From the sequence record PQ356294.1: a stretch of 64,000 nucleotides of DNA; one strand, written 5' to 3'. The DNA is from Escherichia phage Ec_YwIITB1. The notes below the pieces were generated by a model, which saw nothing but the letters and a program-made list of their open reading frames with translations, made no database searches and was not told the origin of the DNA. This document shows positions 1,515-53,853 of the stretch, one piece after another. Every line of letters begins with the position of its first letter. Position 1 is the stretch's first letter. The translations under genes and the position numbers were made by a program.

Positions 1515-1820
1515 AAATTTACCATACTAGTGAATGTAGTGCCATAATAACATCAGAAATGAAAAGCACGACTTGAATTAATCCGAACATTACTCCATAA
1601 TATAGTGCTACCAATAAAGTAGCAAGGGCTAATGAATAGCCCAAGATTTTCTTAATCATTAGTAGATAACAACACAAATGTTAAATATGCACACATACCC
1701 TGAGATAAAGCTTGTGAAAACACGCTGTTAGCATCGTGCAGATAGTTAAAACACATGCTACTATCCAACAAATAAATGAAATAACTCCTAATAATTTTGC
1801 GATATTCATAATATTCTCCT

Positions 1821-43494: not shown

Positions 43495-43809
43495 TCAGCT
43501 GTAACGATAACACTCGTTTGATTTGCGCTTAGCAACTCGTTGAGAAGTATTATAATCAAAATCATCATCAATGTAAACTGATTTTTTCAACTTTCTTACT
43601 TCACCGCGTAATTGACGATTTAGCTCATCTTTAACTTCTGAATCGATGCCTTTCATTCTACGCCATTTATCAGAGCGAAAAATGTTTTCGACCATATCTT
43701 TATGACTTACACCATCAGGAGCTTTACGCTTTCCAAAATAGTCATAATCACGCACTTTTAAATCTTTACGACGATACGTTTTACCCATGGAGTTTAATTT
43801 CCTTAGCAA
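43495..43809 (-). CDS. hypothetical basic protein (104 aa)
   Basis: Lys/Arg-rich ORF downstream of an early promoter. Confidence 0.5.
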   Translation of the reverse strand: MLRKLNSMGKTYRRKDLKVRDYDYFGKRKAPDGVSHKDMVENIFRSDKWRRMKGIDSEVKDELNRQLRGEVRKLKKSVYIDDDFDYNTSQRVAKRKSNECYRYS

Positions 43810-43981
43810 CTAAACTAAATACGGCACGATCGCAAATCAAGCGTTTATTCCATTTAAGTAAGGATAGTGAACCTCTAGATCATCTACTGCTGTAACAATA
43901 ACAATATGTCCGTTCAATAATACTGATCTCTTTTAATCTCTTTATCAACCATATCAAATCCTCAAAGGCAATTCATATGTT

Positions 43982-47033: not shown

Positions 47034-47503
47034 TTTAAACTCTTTCTAAGCTGCTTCTTAAATGAAGCTATTAATTGTGTTTTAGTGCCAGATTCATTAT
47101 ATTCAAATCCTCTTTGAAGCATCTCAGCCATCATTTCCTCTTTTCCCAAACGAGAAAATTCCTTTGATTTATCTCCAACGAAGTTAGGGTGAATATTATT
47201 TTGGGTGTAATCGGATTTTAAATAAGTAAGTAAATTTTCTAACCATTCAAGATAATCAACGCCTTGCCCCTTTAAGCCAGAACGATTAAATTTGTGCTTC
47301 ATTTGACCTTCCGCTGCATTGCAGAGATTACAGAGCAATCCACGCACCTTTCCTGCTTTTGGTCCATTTAATTCATGGTCATGGTCAAGGTGATTAGCTT
47401 GAACATCAGGATTTAGTTCTCGTTGGCAAATTAAGCATTTACCATTTTGTGCGTCATAAAATTTCTGTTTTTCTTCTTTATATAATTTGCCAGTCAATAA
47501 CAT
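47030..47503 (-). CDS. 49: endonuclease VII (gp49), Holliday junction resolvase
   Basis: 157-aa ORF with N-terminal Zn-binding cysteines and H-N-H-like core; T4 gp49 length. Confidence 0.88.
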   Translation of the reverse strand: MLLTGKLYKEEKQKFYDAQNGKCLICQRELNPDVQANHLDHDHELNGPKAGKVRGLLCNLCNAAEGQMKHKFNRSGLKGQGVDYLEWLENLLTYLKSDYTQNNIHPNFVGDKSKEFSRLGKEEMMAEMLQRGFEYNESGTKTQLIASFKKQLRKSLK

Positions 47504-47738
47504 AATAAACCCTTACCTTAAATAGATAAGGGTATTTATTATTTTCAAGTATTGTAAAACATTTGATGCAATCGCTTATATTGCCGAATCGTTTGGTCAG
47601 AAAAAGAATCTTTTTAGTAGGACGAGAATAAGTTCCTACACAAGTGGTCATATTAGAGTCGGTAGGACTTCCTTTAATAAAAAGTTTCCAAACCTTACCA
47701 CCATTTAACTTTTCAGTATAAATTAATTCGGTTTTCAT
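47478..47738 (-). CDS. hypothetical protein (86 aa, 49.1-like)
   Basis: Minus-strand ORF overlapping the gene 49 start. Confidence 0.45.
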   Translation of the reverse strand: MKTELIYTEKLNGGKVWKLFIKGSPTDSNMTTCVGTYSRPTKKILFLTKRFGNISDCIKCFTILENNKYPYLFKVRVYYVIDWQII

Positions 47739-48202
47739 TAAAACGCTCGGTCAGAAAAAGAATTTTGAGTTTCAAGCCATTCAATATATTCTGCTGCAGC
47801 TTGCATTAAATTACCTTCATAGCCATCATTATTTTCTTGTGCAGCTAATTTAGCTAATGCATATGAAATACGTTCACCTTGAAAATCAGCTTTAGGCTTA
47901 TGAAGAGCTTGATCAACTCTCTCTACAACTTCTTCAATTTCGCCATTTTCCACTGATTCAATATTCCACAAGCACCAATACGTAATTGGCTTATCATAGA
48001 TGTTAATAATCTTTCCATCAGAAAGTTCAATTTCAATAATTCCAGTATCAGGTTCTATATCATCTTCGCATTCTTTTGCAAGTTCACGAACTTTAAAGAC
48101 AGTACCTGCACTAAGTTCCGGCCAATAATTACACAGCCCTTTATCAGCACGATTAATTCTAAACCACTTATCTACTGTAATCATGTCCCATCTCCATATC
48201 AA
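47738..48202 (-). CDS. hypothetical protein (154 aa; pin-region)
   Basis: Minus-strand acidic ORF between nrdC and 49. Confidence 0.5.
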   Translation of the reverse strand: MIWRWDMITVDKWFRINRADKGLCNYWPELSAGTVFKVRELAKECEDDIEPDTGIIEIELSDGKIINIYDKPITYWCLWNIESVENGEIEEVVERVDQALHKPKADFQGERISYALAKLAAQENNDGYEGNLMQAAAEYIEWLETQNSFSDRAF

Positions 48203-49589: not shown

Positions 49590-49875
49590 ATCTGTGTTTA
49601 CAATGGCGACATTTATAACGAAGATTATTAGTCTGCCAATGGACTAATTGCACCTGTTCAGTTCCACACTCAGGGCAATTAGGAACGTTTTTAGAAGCCC
49701 TTTCGCGACGTTCAACCATGACCATTACGGAATCCCAATTAATAGGGCTGCTATAATCATCACAACCGTGAATCTTTCCACGCATTTCCAGATCGTCTTC
49801 TTCACCAGCCATAATAATTTTAATTAGACTAGAATTACTTGAAGTTGCAATGTCTTCTAATAGACGCTTTTTCAT
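49534..49875 (-). CDS. zinc-ribbon protein (113 aa)
   Basis: CPECG...CRHCKH four-cysteine motif. Confidence 0.5.
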
Positions 49876-50801
49876 TTCAATACCTCAATAGCATTACGTA
49901 AACCATTTGCTTTTGCATTAAGAGCTTTTAACAATTTGGTGTGTTCTGCAATTTGGGCTTCAACTTCAATTAAACGAGCATTGAGATATTCGCGTTCTTC
50001 GCTCAGGTTATCAACCTTTTCTACTTTAGGTTCTTTTACAGCTGTCTTATATGTATTAGGGTTCTTCAGTTTAATTAGAATGCGTGAACTGTATAACATT
50101 GAACCATTATCTTCGGTTTCATCATACATTTCTACTACGTCCATGATTTTTAACATCATGCGAAGTTTATAAGACAACGAACGAATAGTTTTGTTGTGCT
50201 TATTAATTTCTTTAGCGTTCATGGTGCCAAGATTACGTGAGTAATAATAAGGAACCTGGATATTAATTAGTACTGATGAACCACCTGGCTTATGTGTTAC
50301 TTCATCAGCAATAACCCAGTCCTTAACATGAACTGTATTTGTACGGTCATCGCCCATGGTAAACAGTTTGCGAGCATGCTTAAAAAGCATATTCACTTGG
50401 TCATTGAATTGACAAGCGAATTTATCAGCAAATTTAGTTTCAGGAATGGTAGATAACCAATCAGCCAAGTGGGTCTTTTTAACATCGTTAACAATAGTAA
50501 ATTCAACCAAATCGGTTATAGATGTTGCAGATTTAATGAAGCTTGGCTTCATAAAGTTTTTAATGTTCTCGTGAGCTACAGTAGAAGATAACATACGAGA
50601 ACGTTTAAACCATTCAAGCAAATTGCCCAACGAATGAGAATAAGCGTTCTGAGTATCTTTACAGATATGATTTTCCTGGCCAACATATTGAAGGAAATCA
50701 CGAAGAATATTATTGATTACTGCTCTGTGTCCGATATTATAATTACGATGTTTAGTAATAAGGCTGTCAAAATAATCAATATAATGTTTACGAGTTTTCA
50801 T
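49872..50801 (-). CDS. hypothetical protein (309 aa) with C-terminal coiled coil
   Basis: Long ORF in the nrdC.x region. Confidence 0.6.
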   Translation of the reverse strand: MKTRKHYIDYFDSLITKHRNYNIGHRAVINNILRDFLQYVGQENHICKDTQNAYSHSLGNLLEWFKRSRMLSSTVAHENIKNFMKPSFIKSATSITDLVEFTIVNDVKKTHLADWLSTIPETKFADKFACQFNDQVNMLFKHARKLFTMGDDRTNTVHVKDWVIADEVTHKPGGSSVLINIQVPYYYSRNLGTMNAKEINKHNKTIRSLSYKLRMMLKIMDVVEMYDETEDNGSMLYSSRILIKLKNPNTYKTAVKEPKVEKVDNLSEEREYLNARLIEVEAQIAEHTKLLKALNAKANGLRNAIEVLK

Positions 50802-50853
50802 GTTCTTCTCACTTGGTTAATGATTTATACTCCGAGCCATCCTTGGCTTTAAA

Positions 50854-51855
50854 TTACTTAATTAACTGTAAAGCTTGTTCTAGACGATCCAGATGATTAA
50901 CAGATTCTTCCCAAATCCTTTTAGCTTGCTCATATTCTTTCTGCGCTTTATTAGAAATTTCTAGAGCTTCTTTATAAGCTTTTTCTAGTGCAATAACTTC
51001 TGGACGAATTTCTACAGGTTCAGGCGAATCGTCAAGACATTCCATTAGTTCCTCAAGTGTAATTTCTTCTTTAGGAGTATTCACAATTTCATCACATTTT
51101 TGTTGATAAATTTCTTTATCAGTCGGTGAGTACGCACATTTCACTTCACGGAGACTAACTACAATTTTATATCCTTCCCAACCGCATATATTCTTAAAAG
51201 GATACGTATGAATATTTTCTACTGTTTCCATACAAAGTAATGCGGTTTCTAATTGACGAGTTATAGTGCTAGCAATTGAGAAAAATTTATTAATGTTCTT
51301 TTGGTTAGTTTCTGGTGTAAAAAATCCATAATTCACAAAAATAGATACTTTATTTTTATCAAGTTCATATTCTTTTATGATAATCATATCAGAAGCCAAA
51401 GGATGAATTTGACGATAATCGCCATAGCATAATTTAGAAGCTGATTTTAGAATTTGCTTTTTGAAAAGTCTGAAATTACTAATCCAACGACGAGTAAAAA
51501 TATTCTCAGGGTCTTCTTTATTATTAAGATGATATGAATTAACATCACCGAACCAATTATATCCTACTACATCTTTAGTTCGTTTAATTTCTTTCCCAAA
51601 TTTACCGAGAATATCTTGGTTAACTAAATATGAAAGAAGACGAGAACCTTTGAAGGTTTCCTTAATATCATCTTTATATTCGCGACTAGAAATTTTATGA
51701 ACTTCATGAATAAATTTGTTGGAAGAGACAATACTTGCATCAGTATTATTGAGCCATTGATTGATAATGGAAATAACACTATTCTGACTAGACACAGGTT
51801 TAACTTTATCATCAATAACGCTATTGAATGATTTGATATATTCGTTACGAGTCAT
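50854..51855 (-). CDS. hypothetical protein (333 aa); start re-set
   Basis: ATG at 51855 (MTRNEYIKSF...) after GAGGAGA SD; track start 51906 lies in the promoter. Confidence 0.55.
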   Translation of the reverse strand: MTRNEYIKSFNSVIDDKVKPVSSQNSVISIINQWLNNTDASIVSSNKFIHEVHKISSREYKDDIKETFKGSRLLSYLVNQDILGKFGKEIKRTKDVVGYNWFGDVNSYHLNNKEDPENIFTRRWISNFRLFKKQILKSASKLCYGDYRQIHPLASDMIIIKEYELDKNKVSIFVNYGFFTPETNQKNINKFFSIASTITRQLETALLCMETVENIHTYPFKNICGWEGYKIVVSLREVKCAYSPTDKEIYQQKCDEIVNTPKEEITLEELMECLDDSPEPVEIRPEVIALEKAYKEALEISNKAQKEYEQAKRIWEESVNHLDRLEQALQLIK

Positions 51856-51883
51856 ATTAATCTCCTCAGTAGAAAGTAAGAAC

Positions 51884-51913
51884 ATTATACCACATCCTTG
51901 TGGCAAAGTAAAC
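51884..51913 (-). promoter_or_regulatory. early promoter
   Basis: Minus-strand GTTTACtttgccacaaggatgtggTATAAT; near-duplicate of the rIIA.1 promoter. Confidence 0.6.
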
Positions 51914-52173
51914 TAGTTTAGTGCATTTAGTGCATTGTTCAGTTTAGAACGTTGCTTCGTAAGATTTTTGACTTTTTCTTGAGCTTTTTCTAGCATCTTT
52001 TCAGCTTCTAACACTTCATTAGTTGCTTTAACGAGTTCATCATCTACTGCCTTGATGGACTTCTCAATCGCATCCGCATGCCATTTTTCAACAGGTTTAA
52101 GACTCGGATTTTCAACAGGAAGAAAATTCGCTTTATTGAATTTCCATGCATCTTCATTACCTGAACTATACAT
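51913..52173 (-). CDS. hypothetical coiled-coil protein (86 aa)
   Basis: Minus-strand ORF; weak SD. Confidence 0.45.
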   Translation of the reverse strand: MYSSGNEDAWKFNKANFLPVENPSLKPVEKWHADAIEKSIKAVDDELVKATNEVLEAEKMLEKAQEKVKNLTKQRSKLNNALNALN

Positions 52174-52211
52174 CCAAAATTTAGGATCGTTTGATGAGTA
52201 ATTGGATAAAT

Positions 52212-52877
52212 TTAAGTTATCTTGTACTTCATGCTTTTTCTCTTGAACGGAACTTCATCCTTTCTCAAAAAATCGTATTTAAATGAAACGATCATATCAA
52301 GTTCATACGTTGTTGTATGTTCCCAATTTCGCTCAAAATGAGGTAAAATCTTAGACTGAACTGCGGCAACAACATCCATATACTTAAATGCTTCTGTCAA
52401 CTGTGATTTAAGGCATTCGCAAATTGAAAGAGAATTTTTTGTATTAGGTTTAAAGCTAATTCGCGCAGTTCTGCTATTTTCTTTTAATGGTCTTACTTCC
52501 ATCTGAAGAGTATAACCATCAAATTTCAGATTCTTTAAGTTAATATCAGAACCTTTTAATCGACTCGCAATTGATAAAATTTGTTTTAATTGTTTACGGA
52601 ATAGAGCAATAAATCTCCATTCAATACGATAATGATTTGGATTGAAAAATCCAGATGATAAATCGACCTTACTTTGGCCGACACCTTGAACAAATAGAGG
52701 ATTTTTATAATTAATGGTTTTACAGAAATCAGTGAGCTGCTCACGAGCAGTCATTTGTGTAATATATCCTGCTTGGTTAAAATTGCGCACCCATTCACTG
52801 CTGTTCAGATGTTTAAAGGCATGAATGGAACAATTAACTTTACCAAGGTCTAAATTATTTTGACACAAAAACGTCAT
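52212..52877 (-). CDS. hypothetical protein (221 aa)
   Basis: Minus-strand ORF; ATG overlaps the stop of a 21-codon upstream ORF (ATGA). Confidence 0.5.
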   Translation of the reverse strand: MTFLCQNNLDLGKVNCSIHAFKHLNSSEWVRNFNQAGYITQMTAREQLTDFCKTINYKNPLFVQGVGQSKVDLSSGFFNPNHYRIEWRFIALFRKQLKQILSIASRLKGSDINLKNLKFDGYTLQMEVRPLKENSRTARISFKPNTKNSLSICECLKSQLTEAFKYMDVVAAVQSKILPHFERNWEHTTTYELDMIVSFKYDFLRKDEVPFKRKSMKYKIT

Positions 52878-52947
52878 AGCATCACGAGTATAGCTGGCAT
52901 TACGAGAACCATATCTTCAATTTGAGAACGAGTTTTCATGGTATTCC

Positions 52948-53853
52948 TTAAGATTTAAGTAAATCGACAATTTTAATTAACTTTTCACGCTCAGATTTAG
53001 CTTTACTACTCAGTCCAGATAGTCTGAAAATTTCATCATCATATTGTTGAATAGAAATATTCAGCTCTTCAATCTGTTTATTAAAATAATCAATTTGTTC
53101 AGAATGTTTTTCGTTACTACGAACCGGTACAGGTTTTGTAGGCAATGTAGTTGAACTGGATTCATTCGGGCGATAAATTAAAATACAACTTGAACCAATA
53201 GGACATTTTGCCCCAGATGAATATTCTAATGTTCCAGCTTCTTTTAAAACTTCAAAAGCTAAACATAGATGATGGCCCATATTGACATAATCTGTAGAGT
53301 GAGCTCTGATGTAATAATCATCTCCACGAATACTAAATTTAAAGCATTTAAGGTCTTCTGTATTATTGGTCTTAAAAATCATTTGTTTATCTAGACCTTT
53401 AGCTAATCGAGCGCCTAATGCTAATAATCGGCGTTGATTTTCCCACAAATCCGTAATCATTTGATCGAATGATAATTTTGGCATTAGTCGACCATAAAGG
53501 TCATATCCTTTATTATAATTACGAAGGATTTCACTCGCGTTAATACGAGATAATGCTCCAATTTTATTAAGGGCTTTCATAATGCGATTAGATAAACTCA
53601 TTCCAGATCCGTTTGTTCGCTGCAAATGTTTTTCTAATCCAAATCCAATATCAACTTTAAACTTATCTAAAATTTCGGCATGAACATCTTTATCAATAAC
53701 ATCCAAATCCAGAGCTGAGTTAAATCTATGAAAAAATTTATCTGGCTCTGCACTGCGAAATACAGTCCATTCATTCATCATTTTTTTATTAACTAAAGAT
53801 TTAATTACTGCATTGACATTATTAATTACTACTGACATACTTTCCTCACTCAA
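52948..53853 (-). CDS. hypothetical protein (301 aa)
   Basis: Long ORF with C-terminal coiled coil. Confidence 0.6.
   Translation of the reverse strand: MSEESMSVVINNVNAVIKSLVNKKMMNEWTVFRSAEPDKFFHRFNSALDLDVIDKDVHAEILDKFKVDIGFGLEKHLQRTNGSGMSLSNRIMKALNKIGALSRINASEILRNYNKGYDLYGRLMPKLSFDQMITDLWENQRRLLALGARLAKGLDKQMIFKTNNTEDLKCFKFSIRGDDYYIRAHSTDYVNMGHHLCLAFEVLKEAGTLEYSSGAKCPIGSSCILIYRPNESSSTTLPTKPVPVRSNEKHSEQIDYFNKQIEELNISIQQYDDEIFRLSGLSSKAKSEREKLIKIVDLLKS

Follow-up and report, generated by a model that had tools for sequence, protein, structure and literature searches.

A 21-codon ORF in a T4-like phage reads as the out-of-frame start of a disrupted nrdC.5 gene

Three minus-strand ORFs of 21, 221 and 86 amino acids, which follow nrdC.6 in a T4-like phage, are the pieces of a single gene, nrdC.5. 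They lie in the window analysed here, which is the first 64 kb of the genome of a Tequatrovirus and has a GC content of 34.5%. Judging from the alignments described below, the 21-codon ORF is the normal nrdC.5 start put out of frame, i.e., a piece of a defective accessory gene rather than a leader with a regulatory role. We consider it probable that nrdC.5 has been inactivated in this phage by two genuine 2-bp insertions. The finding amounts to a familiar gene that has been disrupted, i.e., to an ordinary pseudogene or, possibly, to an artefact of sequencing. Here, we describe the layout of the locus, the two insertions and the competing explanations for them, what is known about NrdC.5, and the extent to which the pieces of the gene might still be expressed.

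Layout of the locus and identity of the gene

Starting at base 1, the window runs collinear with genomes whose sequence begins at the same conventional origin, at the rIIA end of the map. It is 95–98% identical to the best phage records, and no record in the collection is identical to it. For gene order, we fetched five genomes: vB_SsoM_113, UGKSEcP2, Shfl2, sb2, and T4. The order of genes in the nrdC–nrdC.11 block is the same in the window as in all of them, and in 5/5 genomes nrdC.5 is a single CDS of 1023–1026 nt (340–341 aa) positioned between nrdC.6 and nrdC.4 (50973..51995 in T4). The corresponding part of the window contains the following features:

52948..53838 (−): intact nrdC.6 ortholog, 296 aa, with ATG at 53838 and TAA at 52950..52948; matches phrog_2257 end to end
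52945..52950 (−): native nrdC.5 ribosome-binding site, TAAGGA, overlapping the nrdC.6 TAA (52950..52948); identical sequence in relatives
51913..52939 (−): disrupted nrdC.5 ortholog as a whole, 1027 nt, versus 1023 nt in T4 and close relatives
52874..52939 (−): 21-codon ORF, with ATG at 52939..52937 and TGA at 52876..52874
52904..52907 (−): insertion 1, after codon 11, a tandem duplication of TC (TCTC versus TC in relatives) whose placement within the four bases is ambiguous
52212..52877 (−): 221-aa ORF, with ATG at 52877..52875, the ancestral Met21 codon
52246..52247 (−): insertion 2, after codon 230, TT in CCGTTCAAG versus CCA/CCG-CAAG in relatives
51913..52173 (−): 86-aa ORF, ancestral NrdC.5 residues 255–340, comprising the end of the linker and the C-terminal long helix

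Read along the minus strand, the nrdC.6 stop codon sits within TAAGGAATACC, and the nrdC.5 start codon follows; the order of elements is AAATCT, TAA, GGAATACC, and then the ATG at 52939. From that ATG, the sequence runs ATG AAA ACT CGT TCT CAA ATT GAA GAT ATG GTT CTC GTA and continues ATG CCA GCT ATA CTC GTG ATG CTA TGA CG. In the 21-codon frame, this translates as MKTRSQIEDMVLVMPAILVML, followed by TGA. The TGA and the ATG of the 221-aa ORF overlap as ATGA (52877..52874). The two start codons differ greatly in their predicted pairing with the 3′ end of 16S rRNA: the ATG at 52939 scores −6.1 kcal/mol, within the top 5% of the window's 1765 minus-strand ATGs, and the ATG at 52877 scores +0.5 kcal/mol, at the 86th percentile of the same set, meaning that the 221-aa ORF has no Shine-Dalgarno sequence. 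The 86-aa ORF also has none (predicted pairing −0.9 kcal/mol), and its ATG is located ~40 nt 3′ of the 221-aa ORF stop. The ancestral nrdC.5 frame to which the 86-aa ORF belongs is open from 52254.

An initial annotation of this DNA had described a stop codon, that of the gene identified here as nrdC.6, overlapping a strong Shine-Dalgarno sequence that feeds the ATG at 52939, a 21-codon frame from that ATG ending in the TGA of an ATGA, and a 221-aa ORF that starts at the same ATGA with no Shine-Dalgarno sequence of its own. All of these details are correct. The description overlooked the second 2-bp insertion, which shortens the 221-aa ORF, and the 86-aa ORF, which is the remainder of the gene. 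A promoter or terminator was also considered as an explanation of the junction and rejected: promoter sites there are at the level of shuffled sequence, and there is no terminator-like site at the junction.

We aligned the DNA of the nrdC.5 region from the window with that of OV876900, LR746311, HM035025, and T4. The window sequence aligns with its relatives base for base, apart from 2 additional nt at 52907/6 and 2 additional nt at 52247/6. A tblastn search with the intact 340-aa protein of two relatives gave the same picture: residues 1–11 align in frame −1 (52939..52907), residues 12–234 in frame −3 (52904..52236), and residues 231–340 in frame −2 (52245..51916). The composition of the ORFs follows this division. 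Codons 1–11 of the 21-codon ORF (MKTRSQIEDMV) are the true NrdC.5 N-terminus, and codons 12–21 are out of frame; the 221-aa ORF consists of ancestral NrdC.5 residues 21–230 plus 11 out-of-frame residues (FKRKSMKYKIT). The initial annotation had proposed, as one of its two readings, that an indel has split a longer gene, and had suggested comparing the orthologous region in T4-like genomes. That comparison bears the proposal out: all five fetched genomes, i.e., T4 and four relatives, have one CDS where the window has three ORFs.

Deletion of the four additional bases yields a full-length NrdC.5 of 340 aa that is identical at 333/340 positions (98%) to the protein of UGKSEcP2, its closest relative, and at 306/340 positions (90%) to T4 NrdC.5. 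The repaired protein matches PF23882 over residues 1–340 and positions 1–307 of the 307-position profile (E = 2.2e-124), a full-length match for which all three fragments are needed. Similarly, it matches phrog_2351 over positions 1–329 of 329 (E = 2e-166). There is no significant PDB sequence match to NrdC.5. Members of the NrdC.5/DUF7235 family have an uninterrupted ORF of ~335–342 codons, and in a collection of 5.8 billion proteins, homologues grouped at 90% identity have lengths of 330–342 aa in 50/56 clusters. The window has instead ORFs of 21, 221, and 86 aa in three frames, and the locus is therefore assigned as a disrupted allele, or pseudogene, of the NrdC.5 family. The T4 gene (NP_049703.1; DUF7235/PF23882; phrog_2351) has the same position, ribosome-binding site, and start codon as the window gene. 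However, the T4 gene is unbroken, whereas the window allele is interrupted after codons 11 and 230 and does not encode a full-length product. For annotation, this means that 52939..52874, 52877..52212, and 52173..51913 represent one disrupted nrdC.5, and not three genes or a leader peptide.

The two insertions: mutation or error

If the insertions are genuine, ribosomes would bind at nrdC.5's own ribosome-binding site and initiate at its native ATG (52939). After 11 authentic codons, they would pass the TC duplication, translate 10 nonsense codons, and terminate at the TGA (52876..52874). The other 329 ancestral codons would be distributed over two other frames, because the second insertion (TT, 52247..52246) shifts the frame again. 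Full-length NrdC.5 would not be made, and the native start would give rise to a 21-aa peptide.

Both insertions are private to the window. Neither was found in 50,697 phage records, either by megablast with 101- and 106-nt queries or with 40-mers centred on each insertion, and a 28-mer spanning insertion 1 or insertion 2 is in no record of the phage collection. The region of insertion 1 is 99 nt long in 15/15 of the best of 497 matching phage records, versus 101 nt in the query. The exact 26-mer for insertion 1 is not in IMG/VR, metagenome contigs, or genome contigs, and the exact 27-mer for insertion 2 is not in IMG/VR; as a control, the uninserted form of the insertion-1 sequence was found in IMG/VR. 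Complete E. coli genomes had no match to the insertion sequences. At the protein level, exact look-ups of the 221-aa ORF, the 86-aa ORF, and nrdC.6 returned no entry.

Thirteen substitutions set the window nrdC.5 apart from all four references, with nine at third positions of ancestral codons (binomial p = 0.009). Five private substitutions fall within 11 codons around insertion 2 (52221..52259), and all five are at ancestral third positions (p = 0.004). The third-position bias indicates that, until recently, purifying selection acted on nrdC.5 in its ancestral frame, including the parts that are now out of frame. The patch of substitutions at insertion 2 looks like real divergence and not noise. 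A donor for this patch was not found: the window has no second copy, and the private variants downstream are not in the phage collection or IMG/VR. The patch (52221..52259, −) may stem from recombination with an unsampled allele or from a complex mutational event.

The same data also fit two sequencing or assembly errors. If both insertions are errors in the consensus, the nrdC.5 of the actual phage encodes all 340 aa without interruption, and the short ORF is confined to the database sequence. Several observations are compatible with this explanation. First, both insertions are unique among ~500 relatives and all collections searched. Second, taking out exactly 4 nt gives a perfect full-length protein. 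Third, the codon-position bias of the substitutions is that of a gene under selection. In addition, two lesions in one gene, at ~2% divergence from the nearest allele, would be somewhat more than expected for genuine mutations. We consider error unlikely, though it deserves to be taken seriously.

A census of indels relative to the nearest relatives found five private frame-breaking indels, all in three dispensable genes, i.e., nrdC.5 and two small genes elsewhere in the window. The three additional indels in the small genes might mean that the quality of the consensus is imperfect, as opposed to gene decay, and deposited relatives such as sb2 have split essential genes, so such errors do occur in the group. 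The five private indels would fit the decay of unneeded genes; they would fit local consensus errors, too. However, the distribution of the indels speaks against uniform random errors. Among ~94 conserved ORFs of at least 70 aa that were compared with two relatives, nrdC.5 alone is frameshifted. Every large essential gene is intact, although errors scattered uniformly would fall mostly in such genes. Neither nrdC.5 insertion is in a homopolymer, and 0/5 indels are homopolymer-length errors, the usual platform artefact. Moreover, the indels are paired within dispensable genes, as in decay after a first knockout, and nrdC.5 has been independently disrupted in other phages (see below). On balance, we lean toward real mutation over artefact: most likely, the insertions are real rather than errors, and the allele is non-functional. 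The finding is read alike in both cases.

The two small genes are broken in different ways. The first (43790..43960, −) corresponds in position to T4 55.6, an ORF of 58–60 aa that overlaps the start of 55.5. Relative to UGKSEcP1, which has the closest allele (94.9% identity), 4 nt are missing near 43915 and one more is missing near 43862; the frame stops after 12 codons (MVDKEIKRDQYY*). The region is 175–176 nt long in the 12 best-matching phage records versus 171 nt in the window. The second is a 52-aa membrane-protein ORF (1650..1810, −) located between a topoisomerase subunit gene and ndd. It has a 1-nt deletion near 1736 (TGCA-CGATG relative to UGKSEcP2 and sb2) that alters the C-terminal half of the protein, and a 40-mer spanning this deletion is in no phage record. 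Among the deposited relatives, Shigella phage sb2 (PQ666540.1) has a DNA polymerase annotated in two pieces, as well as shortened 49.3 and vs genes, showing that frameshifts, whether errors or lesions, are common among deposited Tequatrovirus genomes.

NrdC.5 function and other broken alleles

The T4 version of nrdC.5, an early gene that is uncharacterised and not essential, counteracts the sirtuin defence Dsr1 (Srikant, Guegler and Laub, eLife 2022; PMC9391042). The dsr1 gene of E. coli ECOR17 encodes a sirtuin-domain defence, and a laboratory-evolved T4 clone that had lost nrdC.5 in a large deletion did not infect ECOR17 or MG1655 carrying ECOR17 dsr1 (PMC9391042). The authors showed that plasmid-expressed T4 nrdC.5 restored infection; T4 requires the gene only when it faces Dsr1 (PMC9391042). 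An nrdC.5 point mutation whose significance is unknown was mentioned in a study from 2015. We found no literature on the function of NrdC.5 or DUF7235 beyond Srikant et al. 2022. The evidence for anti-Dsr1 activity concerns the T4 allele only, expressed from a plasmid.

Since T4 nrdC.5 counteracts Dsr1, a phage with a broken allele would be expected to be restricted by it. To our knowledge, nrdC.5 is the only reported T4 counter-measure to Dsr1. If the lesions are real, the phage is null for nrdC.5 by nature, and the prediction is that E. coli hosts with Dsr1 restrict it and that hosts lacking Dsr1 leave it unaffected. The predicted sensitivity bears on the prediction of host range and on the choice of candidates for phage therapy. 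The general biological weight of the finding is small: frameshifts in dispensable accessory genes are commonplace in phages, and the apparent signal of an upstream ORF or of translational coupling is a by-product.

The gene is broken in other phages as well. In a Logan contig from ERR11812329 (L012, 2501..3521), one additional C, ~50 nt downstream of the site of insertion 2, splits nrdC.5 into ORFs of 250 and 86 aa. The leftover C-terminal ORF is identical to the 86-aa ORF of the window and is likewise called separately. Other nrdC.5 products are truncated, to 252 aa and 193 aa, and a 299-aa chimera consists of nrdC.5 from residue ~146 onward joined to the C-terminal half of nrdC.3, implying that nrdC.4 was deleted by recombination. 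All of these lesions affect the same dispensable gene as in the window, but the one lesion examined, the additional C, differs from those of the window; none of the alleles has the TC or TT insertion, and none creates a 21-codon ORF. Independent lesions in nrdC.5 are consistent with the gene being dispensable on many hosts.

The ATGA overlap and possible expression of the fragments

The ATGA is ancestral coding sequence (GCT ATG ACG/ACA, encoding Ala20-Met21-Thr22) and is read through in all relatives examined. To place the overlap in context, we placed a +2 insertion, in silico, ahead of each codon in the repaired nrdC.5. The median out-of-frame run in the simulation was 11 codons, versus 10 observed, and the first stop codon was the TGA of an in-frame ATGA at 22% of sites. 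The ATGA layout is therefore no more than what chance provides once the frame is shifted. It is a by-product, the expected outcome of a frameshift in an AT-rich gene. Incidental termination-reinitiation at the AUGA is physically possible, but it would be a mutational accident and not an evolved device.

The layout does share features with AUGA-coupled genes, e.g., E. coli trpB-trpA and trpE-trpD, and many T4 pairs, in which the stop and start codons overlap and the downstream start has no Shine-Dalgarno sequence. Both features are found in the window. However, the arrangement of two ORFs is not kept in relatives: in every one examined, the ATGA encodes an internal Met-Thr of one ORF. The initial annotation had proposed, as its other reading, that the 21-codon ORF is a leader peptide mediating translational coupling, and had itself named a single continuous ORF in homologs as evidence against this. 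Homologs do have one continuous ORF, and the first 11 codons are a conserved N-terminus, so the proposal falls.

A structural model gives some indication of what the fragments would contain. The AlphaFold model of NrdC.5 is poor (mean pLDDT of 54, shallow alignment) and provides coarse segment boundaries only. It consists of a helical N-terminus, an alpha/beta region at residues ~107–227, a disordered linker at residues 223–278, and a confident C-terminal helix at residues 283–341 (pLDDT 80–93). Insertion 2 is at the start of the predicted linker. Hence, with the caution due to a low-confidence model, the 221-aa piece would correspond to most of the region before the linker, and the 86-aa piece to the confident C-terminal helix.

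The gene might be split but still expressed. In this scenario, the 21-codon ORF would in effect couple translation: after terminating at the UGA, ribosomes would reinitiate at the AUG and make a 221-aa fragment with some activity, and the 86-aa piece would perhaps be made separately. In E. coli and T4, ribosomes can terminate and reinitiate at overlaps of this kind even when the downstream start has no Shine-Dalgarno sequence, and in the window the AUGA overlap follows a short ORF that is translatable and has a strong Shine-Dalgarno sequence. The position of insertion 2 at a linker is also favourable. However, the arrangement occurs in no relative, meaning that it is not an evolved mechanism. 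The fragment would lack the 20 N-terminal residues, among which residues 1–9, 12, 15, and 17 are invariant in 24 homologues, as well as the entire conserved C-terminal helix. For the 86-aa ORF, the lack of a Shine-Dalgarno sequence and the distance of its ATG from the 221-aa stop speak against expression. Overall, we regard expression of this kind as improbable. More specifically, the broken nrdC.5 might not be dead, with the reinitiated 221-aa fragment, perhaps together with the 86-aa helix piece, retaining or altering anti-Dsr1 activity. We consider this even less probable. If it were true, the active 221-aa fragment would offer a naturally occurring dissection of the domains of this uncharacterised counter-defence protein.

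Programmed recoding, in which two −1 frameshifts or +2 hops would restore full-length NrdC.5, is extremely improbable. In principle, the frames of the window could be joined by −1 shifts, as in dnaX (A AAA AAG) and the phage tail chaperone G/GT, since a −1 shift would correct each 2-bp insertion. Translational bypassing in gene 60 is a known feature of T4-type phages, and a run of five A residues (AGAAAAAGC, 52239..52235) falls within the productive window for a shift at the second site. However, that run is ancestral and is in frame in relatives, and the second site's only canonical heptamer, U UUU UUG (52272..52266), meets a TGA after four codons. At the first site, the productive window, which extends from the frame-B TGA just upstream to the frame-A TGA at 52876, has no X XXY YYZ heptamer, and no take-off and landing codons that match are seen there. 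An Rfam search of 51800..53100 returned nothing significant, the sole hit being a chance match to an miRNA (E = 0.08; 20 bits versus a gathering score of 200 bits). The locus differs from dnaX-type frameshifting and gene 60: there is no slippery site in the productive window of the first insertion, no stimulatory element was found, and the split is not conserved, with the two-frame layout occurring in no relative and being unique to the window genome.

Lastly, there is next to no chance that the 21-codon ORF is a genuine regulatory leader peptide or upstream ORF governing the downstream ORF by attenuation or translational control: although it is a short ORF with a strong Shine-Dalgarno sequence, directly upstream of and overlapping a larger ORF that has none, its first 11 codons belong to NrdC.5 itself, it is found in none of the relatives examined, it matches no Rfam leader family, and there is no terminator- or antiterminator-like structure within or just after it, the nearest hairpin being weak and >130 nt inside the CDS.

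Several features of the surrounding genes were observed in passing. The neighbouring nrdC.3 and nrdC.4 (49872..51885, −) both match phrog_1435, indicating that they are paralogues, and nrdC.3, nrdC.4, and nrdC.5 have a similar coiled-coil-like C-terminal stretch (e.g., LNALN, IEVLK, and LQLIK). Directly after the nrdC.5 stop codon and before nrdC.4, there is a good sigma-70-type match (51884..51912, −; TTTACT, 17-nt spacer, TG-extended TATAAT), accompanied by a small hairpin (51905..51888); this is probably a T4-type early promoter for nrdC.4. Further away (47478..48202, −), the end of pin, which encodes a Lon inhibitor, differs from that in T4 and UGKSEcP2. An extra 86-aa ORF (47478..47738), located between pin and the endonuclease VII gene, gene 49, overlaps the start of the latter with its 3′ end. 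The layout is similar in sb2, so the pin region looks like a case of ordinary mosaicism.
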